The notes beneath the pieces are model-generated. The model did not search any database, was not told the DNA's origin, and was given only the letters and a program-made list of their open reading frames with translations. A stretch of DNA of 64,000 bases from a virus. Taxonomy: Duplodnaviria > Heunggongvirae > Uroviricota > Caudoviricetes. Shown piece by piece: positions 19,508-28,897 of the stretch (within the stretch, counting starts at the first letter, position 1; each line of letters starts with the position of its first letter). The position numbers and the translations under genes are program-made. The stretch lies in IMG/VR virus record IMGVR_UViG_2695420859_000012; one strand, given 5' to 3'.

Positions 19508-19594
19508 CTGGCGGAGAGTAATGGAATCGAACCATCATCGCTTGCGCAATGGGACGGTTTTCAAGACCGCTTGAGCACCATGCTCCCTACTCTC
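19508..19594 (-). tRNA. tRNA-Ser (anticodon UGA), type II, CCA encoded
   Basis: Own cloverleaf: acceptor GGAGAGU/ACUCUCC, anticodon loop CUUGAAA, long variable arm, T-loop GGTTCGATTCC. Confidence 0.7.
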
Positions 19595-19694
19595 CAGCTA
19601 TTGTGATGGTCGGTGCTGAACTCCGACACAGGGTTGTAGCAAGCCCCGCAAAGCGCGCACTACTGTAGTTGCGGCACATCAGCCTGTGCATTCA

Positions 19695-19773
19695 TCACAA
19701 CGGTAAGATCACTACCTTTCGACCAGTCATTGTGCACATGAACGACGATTAACCGTAATGATCTTATCGTTGT
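19695..19773. repeat. Stem-loop of the CACAACGGTAAGA family
   Basis: cacaacggtaagatcac pairs with atgatcttatcgttgtg. Confidence 0.55.
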
Positions 19774-19824
19774 GTTGTGAAGCCAGATGCTTATCTTCTG
19801 GTTGCTTCAAAGAGCTGCACTTCC

Positions 19825-19913
19825 TCACAACGGTAAGAGCACTGGTCTGACTCTATCGATTTACGGCCTTGTGGGTCAGTATCGCCGATTCGCCCAATGC
19901 TCTTACCTGTTGT
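19825..19913. repeat. Stem-loop of the CACAACGGTAAGA family abutting tRNA-Thr 3' end
   Basis: cacaacggtaagagca pairs with tgctcttacctgttgtg. Confidence 0.55.
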
Positions 19914-19914
19914 G

Positions 19915-19990
19915 TTGGTGCCGGTTAACGGACTTGAACCGCTGGCCATTCGCTTACAAAGCGACTGCTCTACCAACTGAGCTAAACCGG
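19915..19990 (-). tRNA. tRNA-Thr (anticodon UGU), CCA encoded
   Basis: Own cloverleaf: acceptor GCCGGUU/AACCGGC, anticodon loop UUUGUAA, T-loop GGTTCAAGTCC; 76 nt. Confidence 0.65.
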
Positions 19991-19994
19991 CAAT

Positions 19995-20081
19995 TTGGTG
20001 GGGAGTGATGGAGTCGAACCACCCGAGTCGCCATGACAGTAGATTTACAGTCTACACCGCTACCTCTACGGACTAACTCCC
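19995..20081 (-). tRNA. tRNA-Tyr (anticodon GUA), type II, CCA encoded
   Basis: Acceptor GGGGAGU/ACUCCCC, anticodon stem GUAGA/UCUAC with loop CUGUAAA, long variable arm. Confidence 0.7.
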
Positions 20082-20086
20082 CTAAA

Positions 20087-20161
20087 TTGGCGATGGTGGG
20101 TGGATTCGAACCACCGACCAGTTGGTTAACAGCCAACTGCTCTACCGCTGAGCTACACCAT
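20087..20161 (-). tRNA. tRNA-Asn (anticodon GUU), CCA encoded
   Basis: Acceptor GAUGGUG/CACCAUC, anticodon stem GUUGG/CCAAC with loop CUGUUAA, T-loop GGTTCGAATCC. Confidence 0.75.
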
Positions 20162-20430
20162 CAATTCAGCACTGCCAGTATTTATTACTCAACAGTGCCA
20201 ATCGCGACGGTTTAGTTTCTGCCAGGAAACGCACCGCTACTTGCACTTTTCGTTAGTGCCAGACGCTTTCGACTTCGCTCAATAGTAGAAGGCAAAATCT
20301 TTAAGTAGATGATGTTTCTGAGGACAGCACCTACTTTGTAATTTATACAATGTGATGTATGGAATCATTTGTTGTGAAAACAGGCACCAATGGCAACAGT
20401 GGTTAAACCTACACAACAATCCCGTCTTCA

Positions 20431-20550
20431 CAACGTTGAGGCCACTACTCCGATTGAATGTTTGCCCAACATGTTACATATCAACGCTCGCCGGTATCTC
20501 TGTGAATAGAACCTTAGAATTGATAAAAATGTAATGGCCTCAACGTTGTG
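20431..20550. repeat. Long stem-loop (cacaacgttgaggcc / ggcctcaacgttgtg)
   Basis: Perfect 15-bp inverted repeat, about 90-nt loop; shares CACAACG start with the other tRNA-region stem-loops. Confidence 0.55.
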
Positions 20551-20711
20551 TGCTGGCTAACCATACCAGCCGGGCTACGTCGCCGCTTTTTAACCCAGTA
20601 TAAACGACATAATTGAACAAAATGACGTAACAGGATGGGCGGTCAGTGGCTAAGAATCCGGGAGTCATATGGAGTTGAAAATATACCAACCGCCCATTCT
20701 GTTACTTCATC

Positions 20712-20735
20712 GGAGGGAACATGAATGTTCCCTCC
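20712..20735. repeat. Perfect palindrome ggagggaacat-ga-atgttccctcc
   Basis: 11-bp arms, 2-bp spacer, no T-run. Confidence 0.6.
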
Positions 20736-20940
20736 TGCGTTCTGCAATCACACTCGCTCAGTGTGTCCCATTTCGGTAACGAGGCTGGAAACTGACCTCG
20801 CTGGTGTTTGGCTTATTAGGCTACTGCCAGATAGACTTCTTCGTTTGCACTTGTATTTAAGTTCAAACAGTCGCGTCTCAACGAAAACAAAGTCATCTTA
20901 TACATAAAAGATAGGTAAGTAAATACTTATCGAAATGTTT

Positions 20941-21231
20941 TTATTCGGTTGTGACTTTTTTGATCAAGGCCACTCTACGATCAGGTGTTCTTGTGATGGT
21001 GGCAGTGAATCGTTTCGCTTGGATAGTAATGGTTTCGTTCTCATTAAGTTGCCCGTAGCGAGTTTCCACAAGGGTACCAAGACGCCACAGGCCATCATCA
21101 ATACGTTTATGGCTAGCAAATTTAATCAGCAGCAGTTTTACGACTAACTGCCCTACGTAAAAAGCGAATGCGACTCCGGCTGCCATAAAATAGGTTGCCA
21201 ACCACCATTCCCAAGAAGTTAAATTGCTCAT
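20941..21231 (-). CDS. Small membrane protein
   Basis: 96 aa with N-terminal hydrophobic segment. Confidence 0.4.
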   Translation of the reverse strand: MSNLTSWEWWLATYFMAAGVAFAFYVGQLVVKLLLIKFASHKRIDDGLWRLGTLVETRYGQLNENETITIQAKRFTATITRTPDRRVALIKKVTTE

Positions 21232-21376
21232 TTTCTCACCTTTGTTTCATGAACTACCCGATACACACGCTTTCCGATGCACAGTGTTTTGGTTTTAAGT
21301 TCCTGCTTAATTAAGTCACGACAGATGCCGAAGCCGATAAGGAAGCCACCCATAAAAGCTAATGAGATGTATGGAA
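21224..21376 (-). CDS. Very small membrane protein (not in ORF track)
   Basis: Own translation: MIPYISLAFMGGFLIGFGICRDLIKQELKTKTLCIGKRVYRVVHETKVRK; start coincides with one copy of the GTATGGAATCATT motif. Confidence 0.3.
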
Positions 21377-21592
21377 TCATTTTAACACTCCTGATTCTAC
21401 TAATTGCTGTAGCAATACTTTCCCTTTATCAGTTAACTGGTAGTTGGCCGAACACTTCGTTTCAGAAACGTTTGCAACCAACCCTAAACGCTCTAACTTA
21501 GCTCGCGTTTTAGGCTTCCAGTACTCAGGGAACTCCGGCCACTTACTGATTTCATGAAGCGTTTCCTTCTCCCGTTTACTTAATACGATCAT
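21377..21592 (-). CDS. Small hypothetical protein
   Basis: 71-aa ORF. Confidence 0.4.
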   Translation of the reverse strand: MIVLSKREKETLHEISKWPEFPEYWKPKTRAKLERLGLVANVSETKCSANYQLTDKGKVLLQQLVESGVLK

Positions 21593-21751
21593 CCTTAATC
21601 TCCTTCACGGTGTTGGTTATTTCTACAATGCGATAAATGCGACCGCGTCTTTCTATAACACCGTTTTTAATGTAGTCATTAATGCAACTGGACATCACCA
21701 CAATACCGATGAAAAAACCAACTGCTAAAAATGCAATCATCCAGCCGAGCA

Positions 21752-23074
21752 TCATTCTTTATCTCCGATTCGATCTTCTGTATCGCGTAAGCAACGCGGC
21801 CATTTCAGTCGTGGGTGGCGTAAGCTGCCATCAGGTGTTTTCTCGTGACAATGAACCTCGACAATACGACCACGGTACTTCTCTTTGTTGTTCCAGATCT
21901 CGTCCAGATATTTATGCTTAATGCCGCTCGCACGAACGATGACGCCGTTTTCAAGACGAATAACAATTTTTCCAAGCGTGTTGGCAAAACCAGAGTCCGG
22001 GTCGCCCGGCTCAAAATCGATAATTTCACCATCTTCTGAATCTTCGTCTTTTAACTTCCACCAGCTGCGGGTACGTTTAAATTCGTAAACAGAGTTCGGA
22101 TCTTTGCCCATCTCCCCTTCTTCGTTATCGTCCAGGCGTTTCATGAAGCGTTCGATGAAGTCTTCGTGGCTATGGATGATGTAGAACGGATGCAGGTGAA
22201 TGTCTTGTGCGTAGCCTTCACTGCGATCGTTTTTGAACAACGCCACGAGCATAGCCAGGCGCTCTTTCAGCTTCATACCTGTCTTTGCATACTCTTTGGA
22301 TTTAGCCTGTGCTCGCCATTCCGGTAGGAAGAAGTCGAAAACATGATAAATAGCGCCAATTGCCTGCACGTTCTTTTTGCGCAATGCAGATACGGACTGG
22401 TTAAATGAACCGGCTGTGCCTTCACCATCGAAGAAGATGTGTTTGTGGCCTGAAAGTTTGCCTAATTCGAGCATGGCTGGCTTTAGGTGATCGAGAGACG
22501 TGATTGGATTACCAGTACGAGAAAGGAAGTTAACCTCTTCTTCGTCAACAATAACCTCGCAAATTACTCGCAAACCATCGAGCTTAAGGCTGCCAATCAT
22601 CGGCCATTTTGCTTTAGGGTTTGGCTTGAAGGGGTATTTGTCGCCTTTTTCTTTATACGGTGACGCCAGCTGCACCTCGAATTTCGGAATGGGATTTTCA
22701 AAAACCTTGTTACATAGGCTAATCCCAACGCCAGCTTTCGGATCTTTTAAGAGGAAACGACGGAAGACGTCCTGCCCATCGGCGCACATTGACGCCACGA
22801 TAGACTCAACAGCAACTATTGCTGCGTTCCCCGTCAGCTCGCGAGAGGCCAGCTTATTCAGTATATCAATGGCTTTTTCGTCACTTGGGACGGACTCACT
22901 AAGCGGCTCTGCCACTTTGTATTTTTTTACCCCAAAACGGATGAAAGGGTTGAGCATCAATGAAACCATGCTTTGCTCGAAGTCATCCATGTTGGCCAAT
23001 GCCTCTTTTTTTGCATTGGTTCCCATAGCTTTCATTTCGTCCAGCTTATGCTTAAGTGCGATCAACTTTTTCAT
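21752..23074 (-). CDS. ATP-dependent DNA ligase
   Basis: Adenylation motif KLDGLR; downstream FFDGEG and WWKLK motifs. Confidence 0.85.
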   Translation of the reverse strand: MKKLIALKHKLDEMKAMGTNAKKEALANMDDFEQSMVSLMLNPFIRFGVKKYKVAEPLSESVPSDEKAIDILNKLASRELTGNAAIVAVESIVASMCADGQDVFRRFLLKDPKAGVGISLCNKVFENPIPKFEVQLASPYKEKGDKYPFKPNPKAKWPMIGSLKLDGLRVICEVIVDEEEVNFLSRTGNPITSLDHLKPAMLELGKLSGHKHIFFDGEGTAGSFNQSVSALRKKNVQAIGAIYHVFDFFLPEWRAQAKSKEYAKTGMKLKERLAMLVALFKNDRSEGYAQDIHLHPFYIIHSHEDFIERFMKRLDDNEEGEMGKDPNSVYEFKRTRSWWKLKDEDSEDGEIIDFEPGDPDSGFANTLGKIVIRLENGVIVRASGIKHKYLDEIWNNKEKYRGRIVEVHCHEKTPDGSLRHPRLKWPRCLRDTEDRIGDKE

Positions 23075-23541
23075 TGTTGTTTTACCTCCATATGTTGATC
23101 GATTTGCTCATGTGTTTCTTTTGTTGTTTCTTCAAGCAACGCCGCATACACGTCAGTGATCGCTGTTTGTGATGTGGTGCTCTTCTTAACCATGCTATTA
23201 ATCGTTACACTGTCACGTTTTCGTTTTATAGTTCTGGCTTGTTTATTCCGTTCTTCAACCTCCTTAATGAGCGCGGTCATATCTTCGAAATACAGAGATT
23301 CTCCTTTACGAATCTCTTCAACCATCATTTTTAACGCCTTGCATTTGCCTGCTTTAATAGCGGTTGCGCACGACTGGAAAGAAGTTCGAGGAAGACGGTT
23401 TTCTTTGAAGGCAAGAATGGTGTGCTGGCAAACGGAATAGCTGCAATATGTCGACTCACCGTTTATCTTTACTTCCTCACAACGAAGTGAATAACCGTTA
23501 TTTCCTGAAATAGAAGGGATTTTTGACAAATCAGCTTTCAC
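23071..23541 (-). CDS. Hypothetical Cys-containing protein
   Basis: 156 aa, apparent GTG start, weak RBS. Confidence 0.35.
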   Translation of the reverse strand: MKADLSKIPSISGNNGYSLRCEEVKINGESTYCSYSVCQHTILAFKENRLPRTSFQSCATAIKAGKCKALKMMVEEIRKGESLYFEDMTALIKEVEERNKQARTIKRKRDSVTINSMVKKSTTSQTAITDVYAALLEETTKETHEQIDQHMEVKQQ

Positions 23542-27556: not shown

Positions 27557-28897
27557 TTAGGTAACGTCTAAGATTCGCTCAATGAAGCGCATTTGTTCGA
27601 GGTTTTGTTTAACGCGAATGCTGATCCCTCCCTGCTGGTTACGCGAACCAGCAAAGTAGAGACGAGCCTCTCCTTTCGCTTCTTCTTCTTCGGTTTTGTT
27701 GATCGTTATTACCAGGTCAGCAATACGTACTTTTTCGATGTTGTCGGCAGCGTGCATCATTGTGGCAACTTCTGACGCGCCACCTTCACGGTTTGTTTGC
27801 GACGCCGTGATACCAGCAACGTTATGCTTGTCATAAAGAGCACGTAAATCGGTGTAGATACTACGAATGTTGGCGCGATCATCACGAAGGTCATAACTGG
27901 CACGCATCAAATCTGCGTAGTCGACAACAACCATGTCAGGCACCATGCCATTGGCTTTCATACTGTTAAGCATACGGTCCAGATCTGCCGGTGACATACT
28001 TCCTGACGGACGCTCAACAACCCACAAACTACCAATCCCCTTCGTGGCTCCCAACTCTGCCAACTTGCGATGAACTTCATCGCGCCGTTCCACCAGCTTG
28101 GACATTTCCGTCTCCGACAATCTTGCATCAAAACGGTCGGACAAAATGGTGGTGTGAACCTCCAGCGAGAGATACAGAACATTGTAGCCAGCAAGCGTAG
28201 CGTTTATGGAAAACTCACCCATTGCGGTCGATTTACCGGATTTAGCAAAACCCATGAAGAGCACCATTTCGCGCTTTGCCCAGCCTTTTTGGTACAGCAA
28301 TCTATCAAGCAGAGGGAGTCCAGTTGTAATGCTGTTTGGCACATACTCCTCTGAAGCCTCATATTCACGCGCTTTCAATCGCTCACTTGCGGAGGTGTAG
28401 TAGTCATAGATTCCGGTCGCTTCGTTCGAGCCTATCTGCTGAACCTTGGCCATGATTGCCATCGCCCCCTGAAAGTCGCCCTTCTCTTTCAGTTCAGCAG
28501 CTTTAATCAGAGCATCATCAAACGCTACACTTTTTGCGAATGTGGATACCTGGTCAACCATGTACGAGGTATCAGACAATTTTTCTGCAAGGATGCGCTT
28601 AAACGCAGCAACAACATCCGGGAAGAGTTCCTCACGGATGGTCTTATCGCGTTTCGCACGCTTAAGCATATCCAGAATCGCAGATGAAGAAGGCGCGCTC
28701 TTGTACATACGGTAATAGCCCGAAACCATATTAACCAATATGGCATTGGCCGCATTGGCAAATTGGCTAGGCACAACCAGATCTCCCGCACGAGTAAGAA
28801 ACTCGTGATCACGACAAAAATATGCCGTCAGTCTGTTCTGGAAATCTTCATCAAACTCTTCGGACAGCCCGCGTCCTGTATGGCAAAGTTCGGTCAT
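27557..28897 (-). CDS. Replicative DNA helicase, DnaB-like
   Basis: Walker A FMGFAKSGKST; ADLVITINK strand. Confidence 0.75.
   Translation of the reverse strand: MTELCHTGRGLSEEFDEDFQNRLTAYFCRDHEFLTRAGDLVVPSQFANAANAILVNMVSGYYRMYKSAPSSSAILDMLKRAKRDKTIREELFPDVVAAFKRILAEKLSDTSYMVDQVSTFAKSVAFDDALIKAAELKEKGDFQGAMAIMAKVQQIGSNEATGIYDYYTSASERLKAREYEASEEYVPNSITTGLPLLDRLLYQKGWAKREMVLFMGFAKSGKSTAMGEFSINATLAGYNVLYLSLEVHTTILSDRFDARLSETEMSKLVERRDEVHRKLAELGATKGIGSLWVVERPSGSMSPADLDRMLNSMKANGMVPDMVVVDYADLMRASYDLRDDRANIRSIYTDLRALYDKHNVAGITASQTNREGGASEVATMMHAADNIEKVRIADLVITINKTEEEEAKGEARLYFAGSRNQQGGISIRVKQNLEQMRFIERILDVT

Follow-up and report, generated by a model that had tools for sequence, protein, structure and literature searches.

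Four small genes on the minus strand, directly behind the ATP-dependent DNA ligase gene of an SSU5-like phage-plasmid, are real and conserved genes. They are silent in the lysogen of the closely similar phage-plasmid Cyrano, three of them encode predicted membrane-anchored proteins with cytoplasmic tails, and the pair orf50 and orf96 appears to lie at the core of the cluster. The window, which is the whole stretch of 64,000 nucleotides that was analysed (IMG/VR record IMGVR_UViG_2695420859_000012), belongs to a phage-plasmid of the SSU5 type, and the locus is 100% identical to E. coli plasmid NZ_CP022167. Phage-plasmids of this type are common in clinical Enterobacteriaceae and also spread resistance genes. 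To our knowledge, their accessory genes are almost wholly uncharacterised. Taken as a whole, the cluster is best explained as a set of accessory genes at the end of an operon that would encode host-interaction factors of the lytic phase, an explanation in which our confidence is slightly less than even.

The ligase gene (440 aa, 21752..23074, minus strand) is annotated as a DNA ligase in Cyrano, SSU5, pJN2-26 and RefSeq plasmids and is the upstream operon partner of the small genes. It is followed on the same strand by orf59 (58 aa, 21576..21752), orf71 (71 aa, 21377..21592), orf50 (50 aa, 21228..21380) and orf96 (96 aa, 20941..21231), the last gene of the operon. The neighbours of the cluster are the ligase gene and tRNA genes. 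The stop codon of the ligase gene overlaps the start of orf59, 17 nt are shared between orf59 and orf71, and both the orf71/orf50 and orf50/orf96 junctions are ATGA overlaps. Each start is preceded by a Shine-Dalgarno site (GGAGA, AAGGAG, AGGAG and AAGGTGA, respectively), and the small genes are translationally coupled to one another and to the ligase gene. A consensus scan of the minus strand found no internal sigma-70-like promoter between 24600 and 20100, and the corresponding terminator scan returned a single terminator-like site, inside the ligase gene. We suggest that a leftward replication operon, which includes helicase, primase and ligase genes, ends at its 3' side with the four accessory genes. 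We are highly confident in this anatomy of the four-gene cluster.

The initial annotation had described four tightly packed small ORFs at this locus. All four are present, their peptides were quoted correctly and the packing is as described, but the minus strand went unmentioned and the coordinates were a few bases off. orf59 had been placed at 21574-21750 rather than 21576-21752 (or 21576-21755), and orf50 at 21224-21376 rather than 21228-21380. The longest ORF of orf59 spans 21576-21755, but relatives have CTG or GTG in place of its first codon, so that the second ATG, at 21752, is the conserved start.

The initial annotation had named a lack of conservation in relatives as a ground for rejecting the small ORFs, but they are clearly conserved. 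In comparisons with SSU5, pMT1 and Klebsiella relatives, dN/dS was 0.07-0.25 across the four ORFs (0.10-0.18 for orf59, ~0.08 for orf71, 0.10-0.25 for orf50 and 0.07-0.13 for orf96), with dS ranging from 0.8 to saturation. In PLSDB, 758 of 72,556 plasmids carry the region, among them pHCM2 of S. Typhi and pMT1 of Y. pestis. Gene order and spacing are identical in 60 of 75 viral loci (contigs), and the same order and spacing recur in SSU5, pJN2-26, pHCM2 and pMT1. The dN/dS values, the Shine-Dalgarno sites and the kept order and spacing show, far beyond chance, that all four ORFs are real genes.

These genes have already been catalogued and are an ordinary case of small phage ORFans. Each protein has a full-length PHROG match that covers the whole profile: phrog_4381 for orf59 (E 5.2e-39), phrog_4054 for orf71 (5e-45), phrog_6302 for orf50 (8e-37) and phrog_4507 for orf96 (8e-58). 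These families comprise SSU5_045-048 and their pHCM2 and pMT1 homologues, and all are listed as 'unknown function'. They are the same families as those of the cluster, with no difference between them, and occupy the same place downstream of the SSU5-type ligase gene. The exact sequences of all four proteins are present in public protein databases. Two of the genes were thought to have been missed by the ORF track. Both orf59 and orf50 are indeed shorter than 60 aa and fall under the usual 60-aa cut, but they are already annotated in SSU5, pJN2-26 and RefSeq plasmids.

Few clues to function came from homology. Searches of Pfam, NCBIfam, PADLOC and PDB sequences returned nothing significant beyond winged helix-turn-helix (wHTH) hints for orf71, and the label 'C-type natriuretic protein' that orf96 carries in databases found no support in Pfam, NCBIfam or PDB-sequence searches. 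Searches of 5.8 billion proteins by phmmer and with profiles (orf96, orf71 and the orf50 profile) gave no functional clue. In these and in searches of 1.84 billion representatives, homologues with informative contigs or names led back to SSU5-like elements. The orf50 profile found 65 relatives, of which those listed with long contigs lie on contigs of ~100-113 kb, and the orf96 profile found only 18 matches among the 1.84 billion representatives. A literature search for expression or proteomics data with the pMT1 locus tags gave no matches.

The small genes differ from the ligase gene in their rate of change. Viral contigs whose ligase is 84-100% identical encode small proteins that are only 42-78% identical, which suggests that the small proteins evolve much faster than the adjacent replication enzymes. 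Weak constraint on short linkers could be an alternative cause of this divergence. Y. pestis pMT1 has ceased to be a phage and has lost the ligase gene, yet all four ORFs are intact in it. This fits a role in the plasmid state as well as it fits recent neutral retention. orf59 is cleanly absent from pDETEC87-type plasmids and from 13 of the 75 viral loci, and its loss in the pDETEC87-type plasmids leaves the neighbouring gene in place, so orf59 appears to be dispensable in nature. Considering the divergence relative to the ligase and the presence or absence of orf59, we infer that the small genes are accessory and host-facing in character.

Comparison across relatives points to an ancient core within the cluster. 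The most divergent relatives (L096 and L100) have the order ligase, orf50-like (56 aa) and orf96-like, without orf59 or orf71. Klebsiella plasmid Kp p3-5208.51 keeps orf50 and orf96 without the ligase gene, orf59 or orf71, while in p205880-NR1 orf96 is lost and orf50 is truncated. Divergent members of the orf96 family, at 31-33% identity, keep the same architecture. This suggests that the pair orf50 and orf96 is the ancient core, and that orf59 and orf71 are a later, partly dispensable insertion, with orf59 derived by duplication of orf50.

The duplication is indicated by a profile comparison. An hhalign alignment of orf59 against orf50 reached a probability of 90.9% (E 1.2e-6) and a score of 33.1, whereas 200 column shuffles scored no higher than 18.6. 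The same comparison was weak with shallow profiles (probability 43%) and became convincing once divergent orf50 members were added. Each of the two proteins is the other's sole non-self match in the whole 113-kb plasmid, and no further paralogs were found elsewhere in it. orf59 is thus a paralog of orf50. This paralogy, the core pair and the later insertion are new in this analysis. Homology of orf96 to orf50 or orf59 was also considered and rejected, as hhalign probabilities were at most 2.3% even with diversified profiles, and they have only the architecture in common.

We looked at the predicted architecture of the four proteins, which had all been described as small membrane proteins with hydrophobic helices. 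The best 19-residue Kyte-Doolittle means of orf59, orf50 and orf96 are 2.55, 1.84 and 2.00, in agreement with that description, but the maximum for orf71 is 0.21 and this protein is not hydrophobic. orf59 has an N-terminal transmembrane helix (approximately residues 3-23) followed by a basic tail containing ...RRGRIYRIVEIT..., and orf50 has a helix at approximately residues 2-20 followed by the basic tail LKQELKTKTLxIGKRVYRVVHET. In orf96 the N-terminal transmembrane helix (~9-31) is followed by a highly conserved juxtamembrane helix, FASHKRIDDGLWRLGxLLE, and the C-terminal part consists of a beta-hairpin, TITIQ-AKRF-TATIT, and a disordered tail. All three proteins have no K/R before the transmembrane helix and four K/R in the 15 residues after it. 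Because of the positive-inside rule, the tails are predicted to be cytoplasmic. The three are therefore predicted N-out/C-in bitopic inner-membrane proteins with an uncharged N-terminus, one transmembrane helix and a short, K/R-rich cytoplasmic tail. A low-confidence AF2 model of orf96 (pLDDT 68) has a helix at 6-61 and strands at 67-71 and 76-80, and so models a beta-hairpin before the disordered end of the tail. In orf50 and orf59, a similar hairpin is suggested by the motif G-(K/R)-R-(V/I)-Y-R-(V/I)-V alone.

Small bitopic proteins with charged C-termini could act in lysis timing, as holins or antiholin-like proteins. orf96 does have a weak match to a holin PHROG (phrog_2359, E 0.075) over its transmembrane segment, but the match is not significant and is confined to the hydrophobic helix. 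Moreover, neither an endolysin nor a spanin gene adjoins the cluster, whose neighbours are ligase and tRNA genes, and its operon is the early one for replication rather than the late operon. A role in lysis is hardly to be expected.

The expression of the cluster can be read from Cyrano, a phage-plasmid that is 97.6% identical, for which per-gene counts come from non-induced cells of an LB lysogen (PMC9928086). The Cyrano ligase, orf71, orf50 and orf96 genes (CYRAN_36-39) have log2(fpkm+5) values of 2.3-3.0, where the floor is 2.32, and the 13 morons that Cyrano expresses as a lysogen do not include them (PMC9928086). orf59 is unannotated in Cyrano and falls outside these counts, which cover the remaining three small genes and the ligase. 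Read from this relative, the small genes are silent in the lysogen. This argues against superinfection exclusion in the prophage state and favours a role in the lytic phase. The small proteins would presumably be produced alongside the replication proteins, following induction or infection. We consider this timing, off in the lysogen and on with the replication proteins, probable, with modest confidence.

The main idea of the initial annotation had been that the resident prophage-plasmid uses these proteins for superinfection exclusion or defence. This role is a frequent one among the small membrane proteins of temperate phages, as for P22 SieA, HK97 gp15 and T4 Imm/Sp, and both the quick divergence of the cluster genes and their retention in pMT1 are consistent with it. 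T4 Imm and Sp, P22 SieA/SieB and HK97 gp15 are likewise small phage proteins of the inner membrane, but the cluster proteins differ in being predicted C-in and in lacking a match to any such family. No exclusion or defence family was found in Pfam, NCBIfam or PADLOC at E<=1, where the only matches were of the wHTH type for orf71 and an insignificant one to Cas6 for orf96 (E 0.029). Most injection blockers act in the periplasm, whereas the tails of the cluster proteins are predicted to be cytoplasmic. The genes also follow those for lytic replication in the operon, and no promoter of their own was detected. Sie proteins of temperate phages are expressed in the lysogen. The cluster genes, by contrast, stay at the read floor in Cyrano and are not morons (PMC9928086). 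Exclusion as a prophage product is therefore not borne out, and we consider it improbable.

The same silence bears on an addiction or toxin-antitoxin (TA)-like module, in which a Hok-sized membrane toxin (orf59 or orf50), controlled by orf71 or orf96 as its partner, would stabilise the plasmid. Two products of 50-58 aa with an N-terminal transmembrane helix and a short structured tail do resemble the Hok/Gef type I toxins, which are ~50 aa long. Several TA systems occur in phage-plasmids of this group, and the cluster is intact in pMT1 after loss of the ligase gene. Nevertheless, TA genes need expression in the plasmid state. The cluster is silent while the Cyrano TA systems KacT, RelE and HicAB are clear morons (PMC9928086). 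The Hok tail is periplasmic and contains cysteine, whereas the tails of orf50 and orf59 are predicted to be cytoplasmic. hok stands alone as a gene and has a mok leader and an antisense RNA, Sok, while the cluster genes are coupled inside a long operon. For orf50 and orf59, an Rfam search of the cluster and a promoter scan of the minus strand revealed no mok-type leader, antisense RNA or separate promoter; the Rfam matches were tRNAs and weak matches to tmRNA models, all downstream of the cluster. Neither protein matched the Hok/Gef Pfam or another toxin family at E<=1, and orf59 has been lost without loss of its neighbour. An addiction module is very improbable.

The remaining gene, orf71, is of a different kind. 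Its best Pfam matches reach 13-14 bits (E 0.056-0.15), below the cut-offs of 22-26 bits, and no curated wHTH family (MarR, PadR, HTH_45 and others) in Pfam was above threshold. Weak wHTH matches included HTH_45 and EarA (E ~0.06) and a Csa3/CARF wHTH (E 1e-3). The AF2 model of orf71 (pLDDT 78) has the order H-H-E-E-H. Its best Foldseek matches in the PDB were winged helices of the MarR, AspA and PadR types (TMq 0.65-0.70, probability up to 0.97, E>=0.09), and nearly all of the top 50 were wHTH regulators. The H-H-wing-H topology is that of minimal winged-helix proteins such as the MarR-type DNA-binding domain, pNOB8 AspA and PadR-like proteins. Unlike the MarR type, orf71 has only 71 aa and lacks MarR-type dimerisation helices. 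orf71 is a soluble, basic winged-helix protein and not a membrane protein, and its fold is of a type that may bind DNA.

The presence of a DNA-binding-type wHTH protein within the cluster raises the possibility that the cluster tethers phage DNA replication to the membrane or organises it there. The basic tails, helped by orf71, would keep the replicating genome or the replisome at the inner membrane. These tails are rich in K/R and are predicted to be cytoplasmic, and the genes lie at the end of a helicase-primase-ligase operon, are translationally coupled to the ligase gene and are silent together with it in the plasmid state. A membrane-anchored organiser of phage DNA replication is known from a Bacillus phage, phi29 p16.7. 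It is likewise a small early-operon protein encoded among replication genes, with an N-terminal transmembrane anchor and a cytoplasmic domain. The likeness is one of plan only: the tail of p16.7 is a helical, dimeric DNA-binding domain, whereas the tails of the cluster proteins have 25-65 residues and end in a beta-hairpin, and no sequence similarity was detected. Pfam and PDB searches gave no similarity to p16.7-type proteins, and the AF2 model of orf96 has no DNA-binding fold. Furthermore, orf50 and orf96 persist where the ligase gene has been deleted (pMT1 and Kp p3-5208.51), orf59 is dispensable, the most divergent relatives lack orf71, and the small proteins diverge much faster than the neighbouring replication enzymes. 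A tether is unlikely.

We prefer the reading that the small proteins are neither core parts of replication nor immunity factors of the prophage state. As host-interaction factors, they would work on the cytoplasmic side of the inner membrane in the course of lytic development, either in the takeover of a membrane-proximal host process or in exclusion as infection takes place. Among the known exclusion proteins, T4 Imm and Sp are made during lytic growth. The initial annotation had also named host takeover, and a takeover factor acting during lytic growth is possible; no match to a known host-takeover family was found. The host-interaction role of the small proteins is a tentative suggestion, and on balance a doubtful one. 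Also unlikely is a bolder version, in which orf50, orf96 and the duplicate orf59 would represent an unrecognised class of lytic-phase bitopic effectors and orf71 a clade-specific regulator or DNA adaptor. Their basic cytoplasmic beta-hairpins would dock on the host divisome, elongasome, a transporter or the replisome, and the docked machine would be reprogrammed at the switch from plasmid to phage.

A separate observation concerns the DNA directly downstream of orf96. The minus strand there encodes, at ~20530-20925, a tmRNA-like RNA that is highly conserved but unannotated; it has the tag reading frame ANEEVYLAVA and no tRNA-like domain. No such domain was found for it in the element by ARAGORN at default and lowered thresholds, by Rfam over the whole plasmid, by a T-loop pattern search or by a G3:U70 check of the four tRNAs. 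The RNA is common to Felix-O1-like, HK620 and T1-like phages, and in Felix-O1-like phages a G3:U70 tRNA-like element lies next to it (wV8 27567-27645). It could serve as a non-canonical template for trans-translation, or else as a decoy or a regulatory leader. A tmRNA-like RNA with a conserved degradation-tag frame in several unrelated phage groups is more consequential than the small-gene cluster itself.

The region from 20700 to 23100 of the window is 100% identical to the E. coli plasmid pM160133_p3 (NZ_CP022167), 97.6% identical to Escherichia phage Cyrano, which E. coli LF82 carries as its SSU5-like phage-plasmid, and 79% and 74% identical to Salmonella phage SSU5 and Klebsiella phage pJN2-26, respectively. 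The cluster of four small ORFs therefore sits in an SSU5-type phage-plasmid. It is located on the minus strand directly downstream of an ATP-dependent DNA ligase gene (21752-23074), which follows genes for a DnaB-like helicase, a primase and several hypothetical proteins on the same strand. The four ORFs, named by their length in amino acids, are orf59 (longest ORF at 21576-21755), orf71 (21377-21592), orf50 (21228-21380) and orf96 (20941-21231). All four exist as proposed in the initial annotation, where the coordinates of the two shortest were 2-5 nt off. Since the first orf59 codon is CTG or GTG in relatives, the gene actually starts with the second ATG, at 21752, and encodes 58 aa. This start has one base in common with the ligase stop. 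Between orf59 and orf71 the overlap is 17 nt, the orf71/orf50 and orf50/orf96 junctions are ATGA, and a Shine-Dalgarno sequence precedes every one of the four starts.

The two shortest ORFs had been considered missed by the ORF track. They are unlisted there simply because they are under 60 aa, and SSU5 (SSU5_045 and SSU5_047), pJN2-26 and many RefSeq plasmids have them annotated. Public databases contain the exact sequences of all four proteins, which occur on hundreds to over 1000 contigs; these genes were previously annotated and catalogued and are not new. Their reality had been tied to conservation in relatives, and conserved they are. The region occurs in 758 PLSDB plasmids of Klebsiella, Escherichia, Enterobacter, Salmonella (pHCM2), Yersinia (pMT1), Citrobacter and others, and the ligase gene and all four ORFs are found with identical spacing in 60 of the 75 IMG/VR loci that extend far enough upstream. 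All four ORFs have dN/dS values of 0.07-0.25, at dS from 0.8 to saturation, in comparisons with SSU5, pMT1, a divergent E. coli plasmid and Klebsiella relatives. The four ORFs are real genes coupled to the ligase gene.

The description of the cluster as small membrane proteins holds for three of its members. Hydropathy places an N-terminal transmembrane helix in orf59, orf50 and orf96 (Kyte-Doolittle 19-residue maxima of 2.55, 1.84 and 2.00), while orf71 has none (0.21). The three proteins have no Lys or Arg ahead of the helix and four in the 15 residues after it, which by the positive-inside rule would orient them N-out/C-in. The AlphaFold2 model of orf71 (pLDDT 78) has a helix-helix-wing-helix arrangement that matches MarR-, AspA- and PadR-type winged helices in the PDB (TMq 0.65-0.70), a modelled likeness at the level of fold and not of family membership. 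The cluster thus consists of three membrane anchors and one winged helix. In the AlphaFold2 model of orf96 (pLDDT 68), one long helix (residues 6-61) spans the transmembrane segment and the strongly conserved juxtamembrane FASHKRIDDGLWRLGxLLE, followed by a beta-hairpin (67-71/76-80) and a disordered tail. We infer beta-hairpins in orf50 and orf59 as well.

All four proteins matched PHROG families of unknown function (E 5e-39 to 8e-58). Pfam, NCBIfam and PADLOC gave no significant match for the four, weak winged-helix matches of orf71 excepted. Searches of 5.8 billion proteins traced no relative outside SSU5-like elements, nor, for orf96, did a search of 1.84 billion cluster representatives. 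The name 'C-type natriuretic protein' is attached to orf96 homologues in hundreds of database entries. None of the family, structure or homology searches supports this label for orf96, and the label looks like a mis-annotation that has spread between entries.

orf59 and orf50 share a plan of transmembrane helix, charged linker and G(K/R)R(V/I)YR(V/I)V. Aligning orf59 with a diversified orf50 profile in hhalign gave a probability of 90.9% (E 1.2e-6, 47 columns) and a score of 33.1, against at most 18.6 in 200 column-shuffled controls. Across the whole 113-kb plasmid, the sole non-self match of each profile was the other. These profile comparisons argue firmly that orf59 is a duplicate of orf50. 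Homology of orf96 to either was undetectable, and it has only the architecture in common with them.

In L096 and L100, which are the most distant relatives found (31% identity in orf96), the order is ligase, 56-aa orf50-like gene, orf96-like gene and nothing else. orf59, and exactly orf59, is absent from E. coli pDETEC87-type plasmids and from 13 of the 75 viral loci. K. pneumoniae p3-5208.51 retains orf50 and orf96 without the ligase gene, orf59 and orf71, orf96 is lost and orf50 truncated in p205880-NR1, and Y. pestis pMT1 keeps all four with IS100 in place of the ligase gene. From this gene order and these natural variants it follows that orf50 and orf96 are an old core pair, and orf59 and orf71 a younger insertion. 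In the pMT1 copy of Y. pestis Nepal516 (pMT, NC_008118, 3028-3854), the four intact ORFs adjoin caf1R of the F1 capsule operon.

Compared in the same loci, identity to the window's proteins is 84-100% for the ligase and 42-78% for the four small proteins, a pattern that would suit accessory, possibly host-facing, genes. Viral loci L054-L094 show a sharp divergence step at the ligase/orf59 junction (21752), for which differing constraint or a recombination boundary might account.

Cyrano RNA-seq was re-analysed in a study of LF82 (PMC9928086). In the overnight LB lysogen, CYRAN_36 (ligase), CYRAN_37 (orf71), CYRAN_38 (orf50) and CYRAN_39 (orf96) have log2(fpkm+5) values of 2.3-3.0, where the floor is 2.32 and the counts cover these four genes and not orf59; this level equals that of structural genes (PMC9928086). 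The four genes are not among the 13 lysogen-expressed genes, or morons, whereas the repressor, several toxin-antitoxin genes and the neighbours CYRAN_40 and CYRAN_43 are, and in other conditions of the data set CYRAN_36-39 rise to about 4-6 only (PMC9928086). The cluster is silent in the lysogen of this close relative. We found no sigma-70-like promoter on the minus strand from 24600 to 20100. With lysogen counts at the floor and no such promoter, the simplest reading is that the cluster forms the tail end of the replication operon, made in the lytic phase after induction, as we infer from a relative with 97.6% identity.

These expression data count against superinfection exclusion in the prophage state, as had been proposed, as do the lack of family matches and the predicted topology, and we consider it improbable. 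An addiction module is more doubtful again, since it would require expression in the plasmid state. What stands of the earlier interpretation is that these are small membrane proteins, possibly for host takeover. Our preferred but tentative reading is that the three membrane proteins and orf71 would, during lytic growth, act at the inner membrane's cytoplasmic face as host-interaction factors. A tether for the replisome or DNA, like phi29 p16.7, seems rather unlikely, and a role in lysis timing very unlikely.

About 780 nt without ORFs lie between the four small ORFs and the tRNA genes on the minus strand, and this stretch is better conserved than the genes. In segments 20887-20738 and 20587-20538, relatives that share 50-79% identity in their coding regions are 89-94% identical. 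The minus-strand sequence, ...AAAUACAAGU GCA AAC GAA GAA GUC UAU CUG GCA GUA GCC UAA UAA, reads as a tmRNA-type resume context, a tag ANEEVYLAVA and a double stop; the E. coli tmRNA tag is ANDENYALAA. The putative tmRNA-like RNA extends over about 20530-20925 (minus strand), with tag codons at about 20848-20816 and a promoter-like −35/−10 at about 20925-20895, where a −35, variable spacer and −10 pattern is conserved ahead of the RNA. Rfam tmRNA models align exactly at the tag region with scores far below threshold.

The tag AN(D/E)xx(Y/F)LAVA was found in 77 unique versions, in which some tag positions are fixed by the search pattern. Its last Ala codon is GCC in 61 versions, GCT in 11, GCG in four and GCA in one, the Tyr codon is TAT in 47 and TAC in 29, and all three kinds of stop codon follow the tag. 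This synonymous variation and the use of all three stops indicate that the tag frame is read. Ordinary translation initiation is unlikely, because the frame upstream of GCA is unconserved and the aligned SSU5 sequence has an in-frame TGA, no start codon and no Shine-Dalgarno sequence. A 29-aa ORF (MYKMTLFSLRRDCLNLNTSANEEVYLAVA, 20816-20905, minus strand) was rejected as a conserved gene, since conservation is confined to the 10 codons at its end, the tag, and its upstream frame is shifted in relatives by indels of 0, +1 and +2 nt.

RNAalifold predicted 72 pairs from 27 sequences, 18 with compensatory changes. Covariation across phage groups is seen in a helix that closes the stop codon, in an H-type pseudoknot and in a CACAC/GUGUG helix. 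The RNA resembles tmRNA's mRNA-like domain. Neither the window nor the remainder of the 113-kb plasmid yielded a tRNA-like domain, and G3:U70 is absent from all four tRNAs of the window. The SSU5-type RNA may be a working trans-translation template, a decoy or the leader of the tRNA operon. Our literature search found no paper describing it, and it merits follow-up of its own.

The same RNA core is present, unannotated, in 320 phage records, including Felix-O1-like phages, HK620, Klebsiella siphophages of about 47 kb and Aeromonas phage pIS4-A, and mostly adjoins tRNA arrays. The window's version occurs in 246 of 5426 complete E. coli genomes. In HK620 (NC_002730, 1455-1900), the core carries the tag ANEEMYLAVA and is contained in the late leader, with the annotated pR'/qut on one side and the late terminator tQ on the other; this position would have it made constitutively within the short late transcript. 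The core of the Felix-O1-like phage wV8 (NC_012749, 1470-1783) is preceded by a strong promoter, TTGACA-17-TATAGT, and matches Rfam tmRNA RF00023 with E 2.8e-4, under the gathering score. Directly after it is a D-arm-less tRNA-like element (1702-1780) with acceptor CGGGGCG/CGCCUCG (G3:U70) and an encoded ACCA, which scores 31.7 bits with the Rfam tRNA model and is uncalled by ARAGORN. This element might supply the acceptor part of a tmRNA that is permuted or in two pieces.

The window's tRNA array (19509-20162, minus strand) comprises Asn(GTT), Tyr(GTA), Thr(TGT) and Ser(TGA). The Tyr gene is missing in Cyrano, and SSU5 and pJN2-26 are annotated with Asn only. The best Rfam score of the Ser tRNA is to the tRNA-Sec model, at 44.6 bits just missing the cut-off of 47. 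Between the glutaredoxin gene and this array lies a 302-aa ORF annotated without function (WP_001755525.1, 18422-19330), which is on the plus strand, opposite to the surrounding genes.
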